52,500 nt of DNA, from the IMG/VR virus record IMGVR_UViG_3300025138_000057, positions 1 to 52,500 of that record; one strand, given 5' to 3'. Below the pieces are notes generated by a model that saw only the letters and a list, made by a program, of their open reading frames with translations, had not been told where the DNA came from and ran no database searches. The stretch is from a virus (lineage: Duplodnaviria > Caudoviricetes). Shown here one piece after another: positions 136 through 29,597 of this stretch (position 1 is its first letter; each line of letters begins with the position of its first letter). The position numbers were made by a program, and so were the translations under genes.

Positions 136-966
136 TTAGAAAGGAAGATCATCTGGTTCATTACTTTTTTTATCATCAAATAATGAATCAAATTGATCTA
201 CTTTACTTTGTTTAGCTTTTGTAGTATCTAAACTAAAATTAGTTGAAGGTTGTGTTTCAACAGGTGCTATAGCTGCTTCTTCGTTATCATCATCTTCAGG
301 TGATAACCATTTTTCTAATGCTACCTTCATTTCATCAAATGAATAACGTTTAAATAAATCTCCTTTAGGATTAGGTTGTTCGTTTGTCCATTTTTCTACT
401 AATGCAGCATCTTCACTAAGTGGTGATGTTTTTAATCTTACTCTAACTGATGATTTGTTATAAGGGGTACCTGTTGCTTCCGGTCCTACTGTTTCTACTG
501 TAAGATCTCTTCCACCCACAATATCAGTATAATCTCCAATTTCATCATCAACTGCAAGAGCTAATAATTCTTCATATACTAATTTTCCAAATTGCCATAG
601 TCTAACTCCTTTATCTTCTTCTCCACGTACTACAACGGGAACAAAAATACGGTTTTTAGCATCTAACTTTTTAGCAAGTACATAATTTTCTTTATTATAT
701 TCTCCTTCACGTAGTTTTCCTGCAAATAAAGCAATTGGGTCTTTCTCTCCAAAATTTGTTGGTGAAATCATAACCTTATTTGTAATCCCATAATAGAACT
801 TAAGTTCTACAAAGGGGTTTGAAGAATCAAACGCTGATGGTACAATTCTAATTTGTTGTTTACCTATTGTAGGTTTCCAATAAATTAATGAGTAATCGGT
901 TTTTTGACCACCCTGTGGTTTTGATTGGAGGGTATCCAATTTCTGTTTAAGTTTTGATAAATCCAT
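136..966 (-). CDS. Single-stranded DNA-binding protein, T4 gp32-like
   Basis: WKPTIG..IRIVP, VVVRGEEDKGVRLWQFGK, DYTDIVGGRDL motifs and an acidic C-tail ending DDLPF. Confidence 0.8.
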   Translation of the reverse strand: MDLSKLKQKLDTLQSKPQGGQKTDYSLIYWKPTIGKQQIRIVPSAFDSSNPFVELKFYYGITNKVMISPTNFGEKDPIALFAGKLREGEYNKENYVLAKKLDAKNRIFVPVVVRGEEDKGVRLWQFGKLVYEELLALAVDDEIGDYTDIVGGRDLTVETVGPEATGTPYNKSSVRVRLKTSPLSEDAALVEKWTNEQPNPKGDLFKRYSFDEMKVALEKWLSPEDDDNEEAAIAPVETQPSTNFSLDTTKAKQSKVDQFDSLFDDKKSNEPDDLPF

Positions 967-1038: not shown

Positions 1039-1506
1039 TTATAATTCAATAATTTTGTAAATTTTTGTATTTAATTGATTTAACTCATTATGTTGAGTAA
1101 GTAAAATACAATTTCTATAATGTTGCCAATCAATTTTATAGCTAGTATCAACAACACCACCATTAAGCTTTTTAATAAGTTCATTTAAAGCATTAATAGT
1201 GTATAAGGTATTAGATTCTTTTTTTCTGTGTACTAATATAGTATTTTCGGGTATAGTTCCAATATTAGCTTGTTCAACATTATAGGTAACTACGTATTCA
1301 TCCTTTCCTACTATTTCTAAAACAAACATTTTATTATAAATTATACTATATCTAGTTTGTATATCTGTAAGTAATGCATCCAAACCTTCCAAGTCTGTAA
1401 AAGTGCAAAATAATTTATTATTCAAATCGCTTAAGTTTTGGATGTTACTTATAACATCATAATTCGCGTTATACGTATTAAATTTTTTATTTAAAGTTGT
1501 AATCAT
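1039..1506 (-). CDS. Hypothetical phage protein (155 aa)
   Basis: Intact ORF overlapping the polymerase stop; HRKKESNTLYTINALN segment. Confidence 0.7.
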   Translation of the reverse strand: MITTLNKKFNTYNANYDVISNIQNLSDLNNKLFCTFTDLEGLDALLTDIQTRYSIIYNKMFVLEIVGKDEYVVTYNVEQANIGTIPENTILVHRKKESNTLYTINALNELIKKLNGGVVDTSYKIDWQHYRNCILLTQHNELNQLNTKIYKIIEL

Positions 1507-2755
1507 AACCTTCTATTTCTTTTATATTCAATTTATATTTCGTGAAAATATCTCTAATTTCATCCATTAATTCTGTCTCTTCCTCATCCCAGTCAAATAA
1601 AAATGAATCATAAGTATATAAAACTAGTTTTGTCTTACATCCCCGTAATATACAAAATATATCCCACAATATCAAAATATTTTGAGATGTTTCCATATTT
1701 TGTAGTACATAATTAAATAACTTTTGAGGGTTCATTTCCCCCAAATTTTCCTTTGTATATACAAAATTTGATATAGGACATTCTATAAACCCTTTTTCAT
1801 TAAATTTACTCCAAGTTTCGTTTACAAACCCTTCAATCCTTTTAAAGAATTCCAGGCTTCTATAATTTTTAAATACGCCTCCGTAAAGTTGTTTGAAAGT
1901 AAGCTCTTTTGCCTTTTTATAGTCCACTTTATATAAGGAAGCAAAATGAGAGTGAATATCACTAGTGGGAAAAGTATAATTAACGAGACGAGCAACCAAA
2001 CTAGGATGGTAAGCACTAATGTCAATTTCCACAAATTTATTATTACGTGGAATAAAACTTTTTCTACATCCATTTTCTTTATTAAGTGCTGCATAATTTA
2101 CATTTTTAAATTTATTTGAGGGTCTTGTTGTTGTTGTTTTTAAGTTATACTGAGTGTAGACTGATTTATTATCAACGGGATAAAAGTATTTTTCGAAGGT
2201 TTTATTATGTATTTGTATTCCACTTCTCTCGATAGCGTTGAATACCACGGATACTTTACTGTTATAGAATTCATAATATTTTATTTTTTCTCTGTTAATA
2301 TTCTCTTTTAGATCTCTAAAAATCGTTTCACATAATTCATAATGTTTAACAATAGGTATAATTAAATTTAACTCCGGATTATCTTTATGTTGTCTATAAT
2401 ATAAATCATGTGTTTGTGTTGTAGGTCGTATATATGTAGTAGGGGGTGGATTAATGTCATAAAGAGTTTTGATTGGAAAATAATGTAATATCTCTTTTTT
2501 ATCACGACAATATAATATATCAAACTTATTTAGTAAATCGTTTATACACGTGTTTAACGCATTCAAAGATTCACTATGCGTAATACATACCATAAAGCCT
2601 TTACTCGCTTCAATCGGTCTAATATACACTAAACTTACATGATTTAGTACAGGGTGTATTGTATCATTATAAGGTATTACCTCAATGAAAGCCTTTTTAT
2701 AACCACTATTTATTAAAACATTTAACTGTTCCTCGTTTTCTACAAGCCAGTACAT
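1487..2755 (-). CDS. Compact, divergent family A DNA polymerase-like protein
   Basis: TTTTRPS..VNYAAL (TxTGRLSS..PNLQ-like), motif A EIDISAYHP, motif B KAKELTFKQLYGG, motif C YTYDSFLFD. Confidence 0.75.
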   Translation of the reverse strand: MYWLVENEEQLNVLINSGYKKAFIEVIPYNDTIHPVLNHVSLVYIRPIEASKGFMVCITHSESLNALNTCINDLLNKFDILYCRDKKEILHYFPIKTLYDINPPPTTYIRPTTQTHDLYYRQHKDNPELNLIIPIVKHYELCETIFRDLKENINREKIKYYEFYNSKVSVVFNAIERSGIQIHNKTFEKYFYPVDNKSVYTQYNLKTTTTRPSNKFKNVNYAALNKENGCRKSFIPRNNKFVEIDISAYHPSLVARLVNYTFPTSDIHSHFASLYKVDYKKAKELTFKQLYGGVFKNYRSLEFFKRIEGFVNETWSKFNEKGFIECPISNFVYTKENLGEMNPQKLFNYVLQNMETSQNILILWDIFCILRGCKTKLVLYTYDSFLFDWDEEETELMDEIRDIFTKYKLNIKEIEGYDYNFK

Positions 2756-17412: not shown

Positions 17413-18471
17413 TTAAAATTTAAATTCATTTATATTATCTGAGTTTCTTTTTATATTAATTGCTTTACATGATGGAAAAGGGTTAGAATTAGCAAAGTCG
17501 TTAATTATAGTTCTTTTTGAATGATTTAATCCCATAATTAATTTATCGTAAGGTATTTCTTTTTTAAATAACTCTACTATAGTTTCTTGTTCGTACTCTT
17601 CCGGTCGGCTAGTGGTTAATACTATTTGAGTAGTGTCTTTATTATACATCTCTCTAAGCCATTTTATATTATTAACTAAAGGTTTTCCATTTCCTATATA
17701 TGGTGGAAATTTGTATGAAGTATTTTCTATTAACGTACCGTCTATATCTACAAATAAAGTATTGTATGTAGATTTATACCTATTCCAATCTTCTACAGTA
17801 CCCCAATCTTTATATTCTGAACAAGGTTGACCATAGAATACCTTATCGTTTAACATCATATTATAAATAATATTACTTACATAACATTCACCTTCTAAAT
17901 CCTTAATTTCTTCAAAGCTATCTATAAAATCTTTAGAAGAATTAAAAGAATAGCCTCCAATTGAAAAAGTAGGGCTAATGATAGACTTTTCAACTATGTT
18001 AGTAATAATATTATTTTCATCTAATTTAATGTAGCTTTTATTACTTGGATTTATATTATTAGTTTTATGTAGATTATAGTAACTTACTTTATTAACAGTA
18101 TCTATAAACTCACACTTAAAGTAATTATCAGAATCTTTAACAGTAATAAATCCATGTATATCATTCTCTATTATTGCTTTATAAACAGTTTCTGATTGAG
18201 ACGATGTTTCTTTATCTAGGTATATTAATTCAGTTTTATTTAGTAAATTTAAATCATTTAACTCTTGTTTAAATCCTTTTTCAAAACTATACTCATCTTG
18301 GTGCTTTTTTAAAGCAACAAAGTAAATTTTATCAAAAAATTCTAGATTAATGCCCCGTATGCTCTCTATCCCCATAAACAGTCCACTTTTAGGATGAGTC
18401 AACATCCATTTAGGTCTGGTATTAGGAAATCTAGAAGATTTACCTGCTATAGGAATTATTAAACTCTTCAT
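17413..18471 (-). CDS. Sugar-nucleotidyltransferase fused to a HAD phosphatase (capsule biosynthesis BcbE/BcbF-like)
   Basis: IIPIAGKSSRF..PKWML NTP-transferase motif, DWGT, then HAD motif FVDIDGTL and LTTSRP. Confidence 0.8.
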   Translation of the reverse strand: MKSLIIPIAGKSSRFPNTRPKWMLTHPKSGLFMGIESIRGINLEFFDKIYFVALKKHQDEYSFEKGFKQELNDLNLLNKTELIYLDKETSSQSETVYKAIIENDIHGFITVKDSDNYFKCEFIDTVNKVSYYNLHKTNNINPSNKSYIKLDENNIITNIVEKSIISPTFSIGGYSFNSSKDFIDSFEEIKDLEGECYVSNIIYNMMLNDKVFYGQPCSEYKDWGTVEDWNRYKSTYNTLFVDIDGTLIENTSYKFPPYIGNGKPLVNNIKWLREMYNKDTTQIVLTTSRPEEYEQETIVELFKKEIPYDKLIMGLNHSKRTIINDFANSNPFPSCKAINIKRNSDNINEFKF

Positions 18472-19276
18472 AATAATTTGAATTAGTTATAAATTTATCT
18501 AAAATTAATTTTTGTTTTTTTGTTTTCAAATAAGGTTCTATTCTTAACCAATTTAATATAGTAATAATTTTTGTAAATTCCAAATCATAGTAATTATTAA
18601 ACTGGGAGTATATCTTATCCCATAGGTATTTAAAACTCTGCCTTATTCTCAGGTTACTTTCATTAATATCTAATACCCAACCGTGTTTTAAGTCTTGTTG
18701 CAGCTTTACTAAGTCTACTATAATAGTGTCTATGTAAGAATCTAAAAAATCTATACAACATACCCTACCTTTAAAAAAGATCATATTAGCAACAGAAAAG
18801 TCACCATGACATGAGCTTTTAGGTATGTTATTAAAAGTAGTTTTATTGCAAATATTTTCTAAAAAAACTAAATAATTTTTATATTTAGAATTAGTTTTTA
18901 AGCTTTGGGTTTTATTTAGTATTTTATTTTTAACTTCGGTTGGGTCCCAAAATTGTGAAGTACTAAGTAAGTTTTTCATATATAAAGATAGAGAGTAAAA
19001 TATTGAATCTAAATCTTCTTTACTACACTTACTAAAAAACTCTTTATAACTTTCCCCTGGGATATATTGCATATCGAAGTATTGATTATTGTAACCTAGT
19101 ACTGAGGGAGTAAAAAGAACATTATCTTTATTTATACTACCAAATTTAATTTGCTTATCGATCTGAATCTTAAATCTTTCAGTAAAGCTGCCAGTTGGGC
19201 AATATTTTCTAATAACTTTACCGGATATTAACTTTAATTCTGATCCGGAAAGTCCTATATTAATATCCGTCTTCAT
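18440..19276 (-). CDS. APH/choline-kinase-like phosphotransferase
   Basis: GLSGS P-loop-like, CHGDFSVANM, CIDF. Likely start at ATG 19276 (ORF track extends to 19333). Confidence 0.75.
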   Translation of the reverse strand: MKTDINIGLSGSELKLISGKVIRKYCPTGSFTERFKIQIDKQIKFGSINKDNVLFTPSVLGYNNQYFDMQYIPGESYKEFFSKCSKEDLDSIFYSLSLYMKNLLSTSQFWDPTEVKNKILNKTQSLKTNSKYKNYLVFLENICNKTTFNNIPKSSCHGDFSVANMIFFKGRVCCIDFLDSYIDTIIVDLVKLQQDLKHGWVLDINESNLRIRQSFKYLWDKIYSQFNNYYDLEFTKIITILNWLRIEPYLKTKKQKLILDKFITNSNYYEEFNNSYSR

Positions 19277-20663
19277 CCCACCTTTCTTGATGTATGTTAT
19301 ATTGATCATCGTAGGGATACTTTTTCCATCCATACTTATTCCACTCCAACTCTATACCTTCTTTAGGAAAAGATTTAAAAATTTTCTTAGTTATAGACTC
19401 ACTTAATTCTAATGCTTCACTATAGTTAGTTGAGTTATCGTAGAGATATTCATCTGGTTTTAGTAGCCATTTTTTAATTCGTTCATCAAAGTTAGAGCAA
19501 TAGTGACTTCCTATATAAGATTCAGTTCTAATATAACAATCGTAATATTTCCAGTAATCCTCTCTTTTCATATTTACTTTATCTTCTATTCCTAGATCTT
19601 CTAAAGGAGTATCAAATAAGTCTAATAAATCTTCTCTATTACCCCAAAATATATGATCTCTAGGGTGGAACGGAAATGCATAAAAATTACCTGCTGTTAA
19701 TATTCTATTCTTAGGACGAGATTCATCGTTTTCAAAATTTAATACTTTTTGGTTATTCTTTAAAAAGAAGTTGTACATATTAATCATGCTTTGGTGATCA
19801 TATCTTTGATCATTACGCATCTTAATAGCAAATTCAGTAGTAGAATATTTTAATCCATTATAAGAAGAGACGATTTGTAAATTTCTATTTCCAGTACCAT
19901 TTACCTTTGGGTAATGATTCTGAATATAAGAGATACGTGGATTATTATTTACTGGGGTATTATCATCTACCCAACAAGATATAATAACTTTATTTATAAA
20001 GTTTAATTCTAAATAATGCTTTGCTGTTTCCAAAACATAATCTGAGTATTTACCCTGTAGTATTATATCTAATTTTTTACCATCATGATTGTTTATTTCT
20101 AAACCAAAATGATCTATATTTTCTTTGGCAAGTTCTTTATATCTACCGTATATATCTGATCTATTATAAAGTTGTAACCAAAGTTCTTTACATTGTTCTC
20201 TCTGTCCTACATACCAACTACTAAAAGCCTTTTGCATTGGTAATGCAAAGTCACCAGGATATGTTATGTCAGTCCTTAATTTAGGTAAATTAAAATTACA
20301 TAATTCTAAACCTGTACTAGCGTAGTAGTAACACTCTTTCCACTCTTTTTCAGATTCGTGTAAAGTACTTAAGAGGTAGTAAGCTTCAGGACGTTTTGGG
20401 TGTTGAGTTATTGCTGTTAATAATTGCTGTTTTTCAAACCAAGGTCTTTTTTTAGTTTTATGCATCATTAACCATGTCTTAATAAGACATTCATAAACTA
20501 AATCTCTATCCTTAGATAATTCAGCACATCTTAAATAAAAAGATAATGCTGCTGCATTTTGGCCTGCTTTCTCATATTCGTATGCTAGCCAGTAGTTATT
20601 ATCCGGTTTAGTAGTATCTTCTAGATACTTATTTAATAAAGGTATAATATTATTTTCTACCAT
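19260..20663 (-). CDS. TPR-repeat protein fused to a WavE-like (GT-A-like) LPS synthesis domain
   Basis: N-terminal TPR (AALSFYLRCAE, PKRPEAYY); C-terminal IILQG, IISCW, NRNLQIVSS..GL, AIKMRND, FHPRDHIFWG. Confidence 0.7.
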   Translation of the reverse strand: MVENNIIPLLNKYLEDTTKPDNNYWLAYEYEKAGQNAAALSFYLRCAELSKDRDLVYECLIKTWLMMHKTKKRPWFEKQQLLTAITQHPKRPEAYYLLSTLHESEKEWKECYYYASTGLELCNFNLPKLRTDITYPGDFALPMQKAFSSWYVGQREQCKELWLQLYNRSDIYGRYKELAKENIDHFGLEINNHDGKKLDIILQGKYSDYVLETAKHYLELNFINKVIISCWVDDNTPVNNNPRISYIQNHYPKVNGTGNRNLQIVSSYNGLKYSTTEFAIKMRNDQRYDHQSMINMYNFFLKNNQKVLNFENDESRPKNRILTAGNFYAFPFHPRDHIFWGNREDLLDLFDTPLEDLGIEDKVNMKREDYWKYYDCYIRTESYIGSHYCSNFDERIKKWLLKPDEYLYDNSTNYSEALELSESITKKIFKSFPKEGIELEWNKYGWKKYPYDDQYNIHQERWDEDGY

Positions 20664-22413
20664 ATTCTATATAAACGTTTAGTTGAGCTCCTCCTTGATT
20701 ATTCCAACTAAAATCTTTTAACCATTGATTATCTGACATTTTAGAAGTAACGTTATTTCCTTGTCTATCTTCTATAATATAGGTTGCTCCATCAATAAGG
20801 TACTTATCTTTAAATTTATAAAAATTATCTAGAGCATCTGGGATTCCCCATAAATGAAATTCACCTGCTATTTTCTTAACGTTATTATAAATCCAATCAA
20901 AATTATCTTCTGTAAAAACTGAGTATTCTCCTCCTTCACAGTCACATTTTAAAAAATCTATTTTTTTAATTTTATATTTTTCTATAAAGTTTGTAAATGT
21001 AATCGTATCAAAAGTTGAACTAGCATTATCATATATGTTTATATCATCGTCTTTCTGTAATACTACTTTATCTTCTTTATAATTTCCTATTCTATAATTT
21101 ACTATGTCTACTTTATTACTCTCCCCAATATTTTTAGTTAAAGTTGGGAGGAGTAATCTTGAAGGTTCGATGCTGTACAGATGTTTAATATTTTTCTTTA
21201 AAGCAAGGTAAGAAAAAGCTCCAACGTTAGCTCCTATGTCTACTACTACATCTCCTTCTTCTACTTCATTATATTTTTGATAGATATTGTCTATAAAAAT
21301 TTCTTGATTAATAATTTTAGACAAATAAGGTTCATTAAATTCCCAACTAAACTCTTTATACTTGCAATCAAATTTAGTATCTTTATCTAAATCTACATAA
21401 GTAAGTAAATCTAAAACTTTATTTGGCATTTTAAGAATATAAGCTGCATTGTCTTGATATCCAAATGAAATTAAAAGGTCATTTTCTTTTTTTGCTAAAC
21501 CACAACAAAACTCAATTTGAGTATCCATAAACTTAAAAGGTTCTGTTATTTTTACTAAATTCCAATTTTTATCCCAGAATAAAAATCTATGGTAATATTT
21601 AGCATCTTTTGTATCACCCTCATTAATCCAATAATCACATTCGTGTATAATTGCTAATTTATAATCTCCGTAATTAATAACCTGTGAACCTCCTCTAATA
21701 TTTCTTATATTTGGGATTGTATAGCTCCTATTAATTACTGTTTGGCTAGATATAGTATCTAGTTTACCTTCAGCTACTGTTTGTTTTGTAATATTGGTAG
21801 GATCTACTTTTATAATCTCTAAAGGATTTGACCATCTTATATAATGGTAAGGCATATCTAAAATGGGCATCCAATTTTTTTCAAGGTGTGTATGAGGATC
21901 AACTTCAATTCTTAATCTAGAAACTTCTCTACATTCTTCTGAGTTATAAGAAAGTTCGCATAATTCCATTCTACCTTCACCATCATCTTTAACATCCCTT
22001 CTAACCCCAGATACGTAAAGTTTATTATCCCACCTTACTACCCTAGAATCTTCTAAACCTATGAATTCCCAAATAGGTTTAATATCGTGTTCCGAAGTAT
22101 CTACTTTAATAAAATCTTCTATAAAGAGTGTATCAGGGTCAATTTTACATATATAGTTACCTGTTTTAAGACTAATATCATCTTCAGGATTTAAGTAAGC
22201 TAAACACCCCCAACCACTATAGTATTTTTGTTGGAATTCACTATGGTATAGAGTATAATGTACGTGTCTAAGATTTAAAAGTATATCTCCGTTGGTGTCT
22301 ATAAAAATAGAAGAATTACATAAACCTGTACCGTCAATTAAATCCCCAGGTATAATTGAAGGAGATAACTTACCTCCATTATCAATACATAACTTAGAAA
22401 GATTCCTAATCAT
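20650..22413 (-). CDS. Five-bladed beta-propeller (GH130/GH43-like) fused to an FkbM-family O-methyltransferase
   Basis: NSSI, GLEDSRV, EKNWMP, RGGS, EFCCG, SFGYQD; then VVDIGANVG..IEPS and IDFLKCDCEGGE. Confidence 0.8.
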   Translation of the reverse strand: MIRNLSKLCIDNGGKLSPSIIPGDLIDGTGLCNSSIFIDTNGDILLNLRHVHYTLYHSEFQQKYYSGWGCLAYLNPEDDISLKTGNYICKIDPDTLFIEDFIKVDTSEHDIKPIWEFIGLEDSRVVRWDNKLYVSGVRRDVKDDGEGRMELCELSYNSEECREVSRLRIEVDPHTHLEKNWMPILDMPYHYIRWSNPLEIIKVDPTNITKQTVAEGKLDTISSQTVINRSYTIPNIRNIRGGSQVINYGDYKLAIIHECDYWINEGDTKDAKYYHRFLFWDKNWNLVKITEPFKFMDTQIEFCCGLAKKENDLLISFGYQDNAAYILKMPNKVLDLLTYVDLDKDTKFDCKYKEFSWEFNEPYLSKIINQEIFIDNIYQKYNEVEEGDVVVDIGANVGAFSYLALKKNIKHLYSIEPSRLLLPTLTKNIGESNKVDIVNYRIGNYKEDKVVLQKDDDINIYDNASSTFDTITFTNFIEKYKIKKIDFLKCDCEGGEYSVFTEDNFDWIYNNVKKIAGEFHLWGIPDALDNFYKFKDKYLIDGATYIIEDRQGNNVTSKMSDNQWLKDFSWNNQGGAQLNVYIEYGRK

Positions 22414-22414
22414 A

Positions 22415-23008
22415 TTATCTGTAATGAGAACCTCCTACCCAAAGTACAAAAGATTTTCTAATTCCTTTAGTAACAGGTGTAACTCTATGCATCATATAAG
22501 AAGGAAAAATAAATACTGATCCTGCTCCTTTATAAGCAGTAGTAGCATTTTCTTCTGAGCCTCCAGTCCATAAGTCTAAATTACCGCCTTCATATTCATC
22601 TGTATCAGAAAGTTGAACAGTAATAGATACCTTACGTTTAGAAAGTATACCTGGTCCTATGTCTTGGTGCCAAGTATAATGTCCTTTATCTTTAGCATCG
22701 TATTCTGTATATTGAATTAATTCAGGGATTGAATGAAGATCAAAATCCCACAGTACATCATTAGCTTCTACAACTAAATTAGATAGTTTTTCGTATAACC
22801 AGTGCCATTCTATATTTTGTGGAATCCATCTTACTTTTGAAGAACGAATATCATCTTTACCACCTCCTACAGTAGTAGCTTTAGATTCTTCTAATGATTT
22901 AATTCCTTTAGCAATTTTTGCTAATTCTTTTTTATCAAATCCTTTCTCGTAAAAGTAGTAATTTTGAGCGTCTGTTTCTTTTTGGTCAAAGTTGTAACTA
23001 TTGTGCAT
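22415..23008 (-). CDS. 2OG-Fe(II) oxygenase (prolyl 4-hydroxylase/PKHD-like)
   Basis: YTWHQD (HxD), YEGGNL, FPSYMMHRVTPVTKGIRKSFVLW. Confidence 0.9.
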   Translation of the reverse strand: MHNSYNFDQKETDAQNYYFYEKGFDKKELAKIAKGIKSLEESKATTVGGGKDDIRSSKVRWIPQNIEWHWLYEKLSNLVVEANDVLWDFDLHSIPELIQYTEYDAKDKGHYTWHQDIGPGILSKRKVSITVQLSDTDEYEGGNLDLWTGGSEENATTAYKGAGSVFIFPSYMMHRVTPVTKGIRKSFVLWVGGSHYR

Positions 23009-23048
23009 GTGTATGTATTTTAAAAATTCAATCGATTAATTTATATGT

Positions 23049-23080
23049 CTAATATATGAAAACTATTTAAAGTTTCCAAA
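23049..23080 (-). promoter_or_regulatory. Bacteroidota sigma-type promoter (TTTG-N20-TATATTAG) heading the enzyme operon
   Basis: Minus strand TTTG gaaactttaaatagttttca TATATTAG. Confidence 0.7.
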
Positions 23081-23097
23081 TTATTTTTATTTTTCTA

Positions 23098-23856
23098 TTA
23101 TGCTCCTGATACTTGTTTTATATTAGCTGTTGCTACACCTGTAATTTTAGATATATTAGTAGATGCTACACCTAATACGTTATTACCATAACCATCAAAA
23201 TAGTCTATAACTATTCTCATTCTTTTGCCGTATGAATCACTTGTCCCATTTATAAACCTTATTCCATTATAAGCAGAAGTATTAAGAGCAGGTGATTCTG
23301 CTTCAAAATCATAATCATAATTCATAAACACAATTTTAAGAATATTGTTTGAATTAGCATCACTGACTGCAGTAGAATTTAAATCTATATCAAAGGTGGT
23401 TGTAGTACTTGTAGTAGTAGGCCACGCTGGAATGGTTGATTCTGAGGTAGCATGTTGAACTGCTGAATATGCAGTAGTAGTGTAATCATTAAAATCACTA
23501 GCCTGGTATGTGGTACCATTAAGGGGTGCTGCATTTGATTTTGCTACTATTGCATTTCCAGTAGAAAGGCTATAGGGGAGAAGTCGTAAAGTTATAGCAG
23601 TAATATTACCTTGAGCTTCAGATGGTATCGAAAATTGTGCAAATGTTCTAGTGGCTGTTCCTGAATTCCCACTTCTACCAGGTCCATATTGTGCAGCGAT
23701 TGCAGTAGATTTAGCTGATGTTCCTGTACCTGTTAGGTTAACATTAGATACAAAAGTAGCAGTAGAAGCATCTTGGACATCGTTTTCCCAGTCGCTTGTT
23801 GTTGCGGTTTTTGTAAGTTGACCTAATGCGGTTCTAAAAGCTTCTACTTGTGGCAT
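23098..23856 (-). CDS. Thr/Ser/Ala-rich virion-like protein (252 aa)
   Basis: Beta-rich composition; C-terminal short repeat VLGVASTNISKITGVATANIKQV. Confidence 0.6.
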   Translation of the reverse strand: MPQVEAFRTALGQLTKTATTSDWENDVQDASTATFVSNVNLTGTGTSAKSTAIAAQYGPGRSGNSGTATRTFAQFSIPSEAQGNITAITLRLLPYSLSTGNAIVAKSNAAPLNGTTYQASDFNDYTTTAYSAVQHATSESTIPAWPTTTSTTTTFDIDLNSTAVSDANSNNILKIVFMNYDYDFEAESPALNTSAYNGIRFINGTSDSYGKRMRIVIDYFDGYGNNVLGVASTNISKITGVATANIKQVSGA

Positions 23857-23859
23857 AAT

Positions 23860-24423
23860 TTAAAACTGTTTTTTAGGTAAACTGTAATGTTTATAATTAA
23901 AATAAGAATTTGCAGGAGGGTCGACTGGTATAACTTCATATACTACATCAGGTATTTCAAAAAAGTTTCTGGAACCCGACATCCCGTTCCACCATGTAGC
24001 AACTCCTCCTGATTTAGTTAGACTCGCTAAAGAGGAAGAAAAGTGGGCTAAATCTTTATCTCCAAATGTATCGTAAAATACTCCATCGTAAGTAGATAAT
24101 TTACTTAAATTATCATACCAACTACCGGTAACTATACTAACGTTACTCTTACCAGAAGCCCATGACTGTGCTTTTGGAATAATATCCGGATGATTTTCTA
24201 TTATAGTATGAGAATTAATAGAATGAGACTGTATATATCCTGCTGATATTCCCATACCAAATCCTATTTCTAAAATATCACCGCCATTTTTAGTAGCATA
24301 TGCTGCAGATGCAGACATTAGAGAATCTTCCCAATCCATCATTACTTCAGTTTCAACTGAGGTAGAACCTGTGTAATATATCTTATCAGATGTAAAAGTA
24401 AGACTTTGTGATGTATATAACAT
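23860..24423 (-). CDS. SAM-dependent methyltransferase, guanidinoacetate N-methyltransferase/RMT2-like
   Basis: VMMDWE..M, ILEIGFGMGISA, HTIIE, YDGVFYDTF. Likely start at 24423 (ORF track 24453). Confidence 0.8.
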   Translation of the reverse strand: MLYTSQSLTFTSDKIYYTGSTSVETEVMMDWEDSLMSASAAYATKNGGDILEIGFGMGISAGYIQSHSINSHTIIENHPDIIPKAQSWASGKSNVSIVTGSWYDNLSKLSTYDGVFYDTFGDKDLAHFSSSLASLTKSGGVATWWNGMSGSRNFFEIPDVVYEVIPVDPPANSYFNYKHYSLPKKQF

Positions 24424-24434
24424 ATTATTTATTA

Positions 24435-29597
<5,163 letters not shown>

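Follow-up and report, generated by a model that had tools for sequence, protein, structure and literature searches.

A compact divPolA1-type family A polymerase with a family-wide histidine at the steric gate, and its proposed accessory role beside a separate phage replicase

The window analysed here is the whole of IMG/VR record IMGVR_UViG_3300025138_000057, a 52.5-kb fragment of a phage genome with about 29% GC and an estimated completeness of 32%. Near its left end, on the minus strand (1487..2755), lies a gene for a 422-aa protein that is a member of the family A (Pol I-like) superfamily, as fold and profile-profile comparisons establish despite the lack of any Pfam match, and that we assign with high confidence to divPolA1, a group of divergent additional polymerases of large aquatic phages. 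By alignment, three substitutions relative to Escherichia coli Pol I are a signature of its family: histidine for the steric-gate glutamate, serine or alanine for the glutamate of motif C, and mostly tyrosine for an arginine of motif B. We favour, with moderate confidence, a role for this protein as an accessory gap-filling or recombination polymerase, in a phage whose genome is copied by a separate, clamp-served family B polymerase (PolB).

The open reading frame (ORF), which runs from ATG to TAA and has AAGG 6-9 nt upstream of its start codon, is a real gene. It has 4299 homologues at E ≤ 1e-3 (7378 candidates scored), and the family comprises 1067 clusters at 50% identity. Because nearly all homologues are 410-470 aa long, the small size, to which an earlier sequence-only reading of this DNA (hereafter the original prediction) had drawn attention, is a family trait rather than the result of truncation. 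The placement of the protein is revealed only by profiles and by fold, not by searches with the single sequence: Pfam returned no family at E ≤ 0.1 for the polymerase and no PF00476 match in the window, a PHROGs scan of the protein returned noise only, and phmmer found no match in the PDB. By contrast, a HMMER profile built from 53 homologues matched Klenow in the PDB (E 8.6e-8), and hhalign aligned residues 194-420 with residues 650-925 of E. coli Pol I, as encoded in the MG1655 record (Prob 94.8%, E 5e-8).

An AlphaFold model of the 422-aa protein (pLDDT 94, pTM 0.92) has the same two-domain fold as Klenow, the Bst large fragment and KlenTaq, which it matches at Z 23-27 over about 390-408 residues. 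The match to the Bst Pol I large fragment has Z 27.3 over 389 residues, with a root mean square deviation (rmsd) of 3.2 Å, and that to Klenow has Z 23.4 over 408 of the 422 residues (model 1-422 on Klenow 329-927; rmsd 2.9 Å). RNA polymerases (RNAPs) appear in the wide fold search at Z 8-13 only, namely yeast mitochondrial RNAP (Z 13.3, 242 residues, rmsd 3.6 Å), T7 RNAP (Z 11.9, 244 residues, rmsd 3.5 Å) and N4 virion RNAP (Z 8.4-8.5, 242-244 residues, rmsd 3.6 Å), and a Foldseek-based second look had no RNA polymerase among the 50 matches listed. The original prediction had noted that T7 RNAP shares this fold; its core of palm and fingers, about 243 aa, does indeed superpose on the model, but the chain as a whole lies much closer to the Pol I DNA polymerases.

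To count conservation, we used 137 full-length representatives drawn from clusters less than 50% identical to one another, consisting of the window protein and the 136 sequences of at least 380 aa among 150 listed homologues. The N-terminal domain (about residues 1-130; 2366..2755, minus strand) has the fold of a 3'-5' exonuclease without the catalytic acids. Model residues 1-211 match RNase D at Z 11.0, and the Klenow alignment begins at residue 329, the domain thus being present as a fold. However, only three columns within residues 1-135 are at least 80% Asp or Glu (E6, E62 and D100), so the proofreading DEDD tetrad is not conserved, in line with the earlier statement that there is no clear DxE exonuclease I motif. 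In an ungapped register anchored on Klenow 329, Ile27 and Tyr29 would stand opposite Asp355 and Glu357 of Pol I; a local pairwise alignment of the domain with Pol I 324-520 was uninformative (score 29). Other residues of the domain (window 2456-2755) are near-invariant, namely H34 (131 of 137), H60 (134), an acidic residue at position 62 (137), K87 (130) and D100 (124), and judging from this conservation they look like a site or an interface rather than mere decay.

The thumb (about residues 135-190; 2186..2353, minus strand) is also reduced. DSSP assigns it two helices in the model, at residues 135-152 and 159-178, and the span from the start of the protein to R211 is 210 aa, compared with 339 aa in Pol I (329 to R668). 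Overall, the window protein is about 180 residues shorter than the large fragments of Pol I-type enzymes, and it lacks the 5'-3' nuclease domain of Pol I; the gene module of its relatives has a separate flap nuclease gene. The exonuclease domains of the Bst large fragment and KlenTaq are also inactive.

The alignments of the HMMER profile with Klenow and of hhalign with Pol I gave an identical register, pairing R211 with R668, D245 with D705, H250 with E710, Y279 with R754, K283 with K758, F287 with F762, Y291-G292 with Y766-G767, Q352 with Q849, and, in motif C, Y382-D383-S384-F385 with H881-D882-E883-L884. Motif A (DISAYH; 2006..2023, minus strand), D245-I-S-A-Y-H250, thus stands opposite D705-Y-S-Q-I-E710 of Pol I, with the catalytic Asp245 retained and His250 at the steric gate. 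Motif B (YKKAKELTFKQLYG; 1880..1921, minus strand), Y279xxxK283xxxF287xxxY291-G292, stands opposite R754xxxK758xxxF762xxxY766-G767, with Tyr279 in place of Arg754 and with Lys283, Phe287, Tyr291 and Gly292 retained. Motif C (YDSFLFD; 1592..1612, minus strand) keeps the catalytic Asp383, has Ser384 in place of Glu883, and includes a near-invariant Asp388. The motifs of Pol I and T7 RNAP used for comparison were read from fetched sequence records. The original prediction had proposed all three substitutions, and the retention of both catalytic aspartates, from a manual alignment; each of these assignments holds in both profile alignments.

The substitutions extend across the family. The gate position is His in 135 of the 137 representatives, Gln in the other 2, and Glu in none. 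At the position of E883, Ser (100), Ala (35) and Gly (2) account for all sequences, again with no Glu, and the position of Arg754 is most often Tyr (88), with Ile in 14 and Arg in 13. The remaining residues are those expected of Pol I: R211 is conserved in 137, D245 in 137, K283 in 136, F287 in 127, Y291 in 133, Q352 in 136, D383 in 136 and D388 in 134. Acidic residues are absent from D245+3 through D245+6 across the family, so a one-residue shift of the alignment would restore no acidic gate. The gate assignment itself comes from the two profile alignments together with the whole-chain structural match, not from a residue-level superposition. The window protein therefore has the Pol I-type fold, the Asp of motif A, the Lys...Tyr-Gly of motif B and the Asp of motif C, and shares with Pol I the equivalents of Lys758, Phe762, Tyr766, Arg668 and Gln849; it differs from Pol I in having His for Glu710, Ser for Glu883 (and hence no Asp-Glu in motif C) and Tyr for Arg754, and it does not reach the gathering score of PF00476.

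The closest isolate match to the window protein is gp001 from Flavobacterium phage vB_FspM_immuto (37.2% identity by tblastn over 98% of the query, E 2e-84), and the frame of this homologue scores 43.9 bits on PF00476. The immuto record ends in a syntenic stretch, whose gene order matches that of the window from the tail sheath to the polymerase. Immuto, the type phage of divPolA1, is listed among the phages of this group by Yutin, Tolstoy, Mutz, Wolf, Krupovic and Koonin (2024, Virol J 21:200; PMC11348598), who described the group from 14 phages with genomes of 155-190 kb; its members keep the catalytic residues of the palm, have a truncated thumb and an inactivated exonuclease domain, and are followed by conserved replication genes in genomes that always also encode a regular DNA polymerase of family A, B or C (PMC11348598). 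The window protein has full-length homology to the group, a catalytic palm, a short thumb, a dead exonuclease domain and downstream replication genes. Compared with the divPolA1 of immuto it has the same size and architecture and, in its relatives, an accompanying regular polymerase; its lineage is more distant (37% identity, GC about 29%) and has a split PolB as its regular enzyme, and nothing differs in kind. Our analysis adds to the published description the family-wide counts for the His gate and the Ser or Ala of motif C, a larger family (1067 clusters at 50% identity, compared with the 14 phages of PMC11348598), the split PolB and a linked small gene. The words "steric", "ribonucleotide" and "histidine" do not occur in the text of PMC11348598, nor does that text mention the small gene, although the motif alignments in its figures may show the residues concerned. 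The divPolA2 proteins of barbaviruses resemble divPolA1 in being a second, divergent family A polymerase without proofreading beside a regular PolB; going by their description, they are set apart by a novel N-terminal domain, the lack of a recognisable thumb and a variable gene context, and it has been proposed that they may be RNA polymerases (PMC11348598).

Immediately downstream of the polymerase gene, and overlapping it, is a conserved small gene (1039..1506, minus strand) encoding a 155-aa protein with an invariant core, HRKK..NTLYT.N..N, after which we call it the HRKK protein. Its start lies 20 nt inside the polymerase gene, with GAAGG before the ATG, and the core is invariant in 37 diverse sequences. 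The protein is 59% identical to gp002 of immuto, where the polymerases are only 37% identical. A homologue of the small gene lies downstream of the polymerase in 169 of the 173 loci with at least 520 nt of downstream DNA, being adjacent to or overlapping the polymerase gene in 100 and 0.95-2.6 kb downstream in 69; the 4 loci without a homologue have less than 2.4 kb of downstream DNA. For one relative (query P0199), no viral contig was found. In 7 of 7 loci examined in which polymerase and small gene are apart, the gap is filled by one ORF of about 420-770 aa, a further member of the module in other clades. Six of these seven ORFs were scanned, with no Pfam match above noise (419-773 aa; L121 5259-7580, L141 5266-6609, L159 5207-6727, L134 5318-7216, L172 5257-7311 and L192 5326-6585).

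The small protein itself resisted classification. Pfam scans of 13 members and a profile search of the PDB gave nothing significant, the ESM Atlas gave no usable match, and an AlphaFold model from 10 sequences was a low-confidence mixed alpha/beta fold (pLDDT 50.6) for which the best match of a wide fold search was within noise (Z 5.3, to ferredoxin-like and ACT-type folds). Predictions of a complex between the polymerase and the small protein from two alignments (A1 and A4), run without controls, scored 0.00 and 0.15 against a mark of 0.32. The T4 RegA gene also adjoins a polymerase gene, and a resemblance of the core of the small protein to RegA was considered, but we reject this identification given an hhalign Prob of 0.04% against T4 RegA. 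The T4 mediators of the UvsY and gp59 types are helical; a mediator of either type, considered because the small gene stands next to that for gp32, is unsupported, the protein being predicted as alpha/beta and having no Pfam match.

The small gene is usually located just upstream of a gene for a gp32-like single-strand DNA binding protein (SSB), as in the window (136..966, minus strand; Pfam gp32 E 4.4e-10, PHROG 1192 E 5e-16). Among the 37 loci with at least 6.5 kb of downstream DNA, SSB, flap nuclease and DnaB-like helicase genes are each found in all 37 and a RecA-like gene in 36, and the order SSB, RecA-like protein, 5'-3' exonuclease, DnaB-like helicase, ribonucleotide reductase (RNR) is kept in 35. 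The polymerase heads a conserved module, probably co-transcribed, that continues with the HRKK protein, the gp32 SSB, a RecA/UvsX-like protein, a 5'-3' flap exonuclease and a DnaB-like helicase.

The original prediction had suggested that the window protein may not be the replicase and had called for a search for a second, canonical polymerase. Such an enzyme was found in relatives. Six of the 10 window-lineage records searched, with polymerases 65-94% identical, carry a PolB gene 19.7-26.9 kb downstream of the divPolA1 gene, and the four records without one have at most 21 kb of DNA downstream. In the window lineage PolB is encoded as two ORFs of about 580 and 320 aa; two pieces were found in 5 of the 6 relatives that have it, only the N-terminal piece being matched in the sixth (G007). 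In the relative G008, the polymerase is followed by the small gene, gp32, the RecA-like gene, the 5'-3' exonuclease, the DnaB-like helicase, RNR, a set of 7-deazaguanine genes, the N-terminal part of PolB, two small ORFs, the C-terminal part of PolB, Hsp20, GroES, GroEL and a gp44-like clamp loader. The split PolB of G008 (L102 1494-5010) has its exonuclease and palm in a 581-aa piece and its C-terminal part in one of 325 aa; between the two lie small ORFs of 91 aa and 122 aa, the latter a DUF4254/DUF6165 protein.

Genomes of more distant clades gave a similar picture. PolB is encoded in 4 of 5 such records, including those that are 100% and 97% complete; searches of the five for a second family A polymerase above threshold and for a Pol III alpha found neither. 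Immuto has a regular family A enzyme of 777 aa with its DTE, ExoII and ExoIII motifs and its gate Glu intact, and the regular polymerase of Mel-JY01, G011 and G012 is a PolB. All four of these complete or near-complete genomes with the family encode a regular DNA polymerase, and divPolA1 is not seen as a sole replicase. The suggestion of the original prediction that the protein may not be the replicase is thus supported.

We propose the following role for the window protein. It would be a compact, Klenow-like enzyme, DNA-templated and primer-extending, with a dead exonuclease domain, in a phage whose replicase would be a split, clamp-loader-served PolB encoded beyond the left end of the 52.5-kb fragment. 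Active DNA-templated primer extension is suggested by the retention of the equivalents of R668 and Q849, of the nucleotide-binding Lys and Tyr, and of Phe762; indeed, conservation of R211 and Q352 argues that contacts with the minor groove of the primer-template are kept as in DNA polymerases. The His at the gate probably still acts as a bulky sugar gate. Since the protein has no proofreading and a short thumb, its synthesis would be expected to be distributive, and because of its fixed company of SSB, flap nuclease, DnaB and RecA-like genes, we would expect it to work on single-stranded DNA intermediates. It may thus carry out short-patch synthesis on gp32-coated intermediates, filling gaps at Okazaki junctions in the manner of Pol I with the neighbouring flap nuclease, extending D-loops during recombination, or both. 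We infer from these residues and this gene context that the protein is an active polymerase that uses dNTPs in such a role.

Several observations weigh against this proposal. Throughout the family, three nucleotide-binding residues have been replaced, with His for Glu710, Ser or Ala for Glu883 and mostly Tyr for Arg754. This argues that chemistry or substrate differs from that of Pol I in a way that gap filling would leave unexplained. Okazaki maturation in T4 requires no second polymerase, and the need for one here is not obvious. The PolB evidence comes from relatives, the window record itself being 32% complete and without a match to PolA (PF00476). No activity has been measured for any member of the family, the literature found under "divPolA1" consisting of the 2024 paper and a preprint. 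Lastly, divPolA1 keeps its replication context while the regular polymerases swap between families A, B and C (PMC11348598), so divPolA1 could be more central than we propose.

The first of these points leads to an alternative in which the trio of His, Ser or Ala, and Tyr reflects a different nucleotide chemistry. In this case the enzyme would have relaxed or altered sugar selectivity, using ribonucleotides (rNTPs) or a mixture of nucleotides, or would start synthesis de novo as a primase-polymerase together with the HRKK protein, as the CCPol-MP pair of SCCmec elements does; we consider this unlikely. The absence of the gate Glu and of the motif C Glu from all 137 sequences is consistent with such a change, and the YDSF of motif C resembles the HDSF of T7 RNAP, whose IHDSF motif, cited in the original prediction, is present in the fetched T7 record. 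The Asp-Ser-Phe of motif C is common to both enzymes. However, several features separate the family from RNA polymerases: hhalign with the 53-sequence profile gave a Prob of 0.4% against T7 RNAP (the gene 1 protein), the structural match covers 244 aa at Z 11.9 as opposed to about 390-408 aa at Z 23-27 for DNA polymerases, and the window protein has 422 rather than 883 aa, with an N-terminal DEDD exonuclease fold instead of a promoter-binding domain. At the gate it has His250 where T7 RNAP has Gly542, and it keeps the equivalent of Phe762 where T7 RNAP has Met. Indeed, Phe287, the equivalent of F762 in the deoxyribose pocket, is kept in 127 of the 137 sequences, which speaks against the use of rNTPs, as does a model in which a His, H760 of E. 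coli Pol III alpha, functions as the steric gate (PMC8485763).

The comparison with CCPol-MP bears on the priming version of this alternative. Like CCPol (Bebel et al., 2020; PMC7581432), the window protein is a small family A polymerase with a helicase gene and the gene of a small protein beside its own, and CCPol acquires de novo DNA priming from its small partner (PMC7581432; 10.1101/2022.12.02.518924). Linkage of the small gene to divPolA1 holds in 169 of 173 loci, and in the window lineage the two genes overlap. In addition, the hhalign alignment has a deletion of 4 residues, those of Pol I 685-688, between G229 and C230 (window 2065-2068 region); the helix at this point is described as shorter in CCPol and in single-subunit RNAPs, which makes space for an initiating nucleotide (PMC7581432). 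As read from the alignment, the deletion may be a weak lead toward an ability to initiate. By contrast, CCPol lacks any exonuclease domain and retains the equivalents of Glu710 and Phe762 (PMC7581432), whereas the window protein has the exonuclease fold and no gate Glu. MP is predicted to have an OB fold (Rice, 2022 preprint; 10.1101/2022.12.02.518924), whereas the low-confidence prediction for the HRKK protein is a mixed alpha/beta fold, and what links the two phage proteins is the proximity of their genes. The polymerase and the small gene are apart in 69 loci, with a large ORF between them in the seven examined, which counts against a priming pair, as does the DnaG-like primase ORF found in 4 of the 5 records searched (3 of 4 window-lineage records, and immuto). 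In immuto, the DnaG-like primase gene is followed by a gene annotated as "exonuclease" (260 aa; L112 / W01 104446-106150, gp091-gp090), whose product might proofread in trans for either polymerase; G001-G003 belong to the same observation. Taken together, the proposals of the original prediction that the enzyme is primase-like, incorporates ribonucleotides or is specialised for modified nucleotides are not supported by the computations made here.

A second alternative is that divPolA1 is the true replicase and that the regular enzymes of families A, B and C are accessory. The location of divPolA1 in a conserved module with SSB, recombinase, helicase and RNR genes would fit, as would the fact that the regular polymerase changes family and sits among chaperonin and nucleotide-modification genes (PMC11348598). 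We nonetheless regard this as quite improbable. An enzyme without a proofreading site and with a short thumb would have to copy genomes of about 160-190 kb. The PolB of G008, by comparison, includes an exonuclease domain and is encoded close to a gp44-like clamp loader, and the exonuclease motifs of the regular PolA of immuto are intact.

It has also been shown that the DNA of immuto is modified, the dG peak being gone with fdPreQ1 in its place (bioRxiv 10.1101/2023.04.13.536721), which raises the idea that divPolA1 is a specialist for modified DNA, copying or filling in 7-deazaguanine DNA or bypassing lesions. Consistent with this, G008 encodes a DpdA homologue (35% identity to immuto DpdA, E 2e-55) together with QueC, QueD, QueE and GTP cyclohydrolase I, and, going by these sequences, the DNA of the window lineage is probably 7-deazaguanine-modified, as shown chemically for immuto. 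Lesion-bypass polymerases typically lack proofreading, as this family does. The 7-deazaguanine genes of G008 are located at L101 15056-18918 and L102 21-464, the QueE-like protein being a radical-SAM protein. However, of 5 further divPolA1 records a single one has a DpdA homologue, and 2 of the 4 complete genomes with the polymerase, G011 (100% complete) and Mel-JY01 (complete), lack it; the substitutions of the family are at sugar and phosphate contacts, not at base contacts; and the modification in immuto has been attributed to DpdA (bioRxiv 10.1101/2023.04.13.536721). We therefore see little likelihood in this alternative. A catalytically dead polymerase fold with a structural or regulatory role, which might be suspected from the replacement of three canonical active-site residues and from the failure of Pfam to recognise the protein, is highly improbable, because the equivalents of both Asp, Lys758, Tyr766, Arg668 and Gln849 are kept in 133-137 of 137 sequences, and retention of catalytic residues across clusters less than 50% identical is the pattern of an active enzyme.

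Elsewhere in the window, the minus strand carries every long ORF, and these include genes for a T4-type major capsid protein, portal, prohead protease, large terminase and tail sheath. A 1717-aa collagen-repeat protein is encoded at 24435-29588 (Pfam Collagen E 2e-117), where the local GC is 41-49%, compared with about 29% elsewhere. It is followed by two ORFs that match no Pfam family and then by genes for a 2OG-Fe(II) oxygenase, an FkbM-type methyltransferase, a WavE-like protein, an APH-like kinase and a HAD-domain protein, and the region as a whole (17413-29588) may serve in fibre modification.

The phage lineage to which the window belongs abounds in aquatic metagenomes, where the polymerase and the small gene both occur in thousands of nearly identical copies. 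If divPolA1 is only a gap filler, its function is an ordinary one, another phage repair function resembling that of Pol I beside a T4-type replisome. Even so, a natural family with His in 135 of 137 members in place of the otherwise near-universal gate Glu of family A offers a ready test of how sugars are selected, and the family is a possible source of compact, exonuclease-free polymerases. Should the altered nucleotide chemistry prove true, it would mean that a second system for priming or for RNA-DNA synthesis, built on the Pol I fold, is widespread in abundant aquatic myoviruses.

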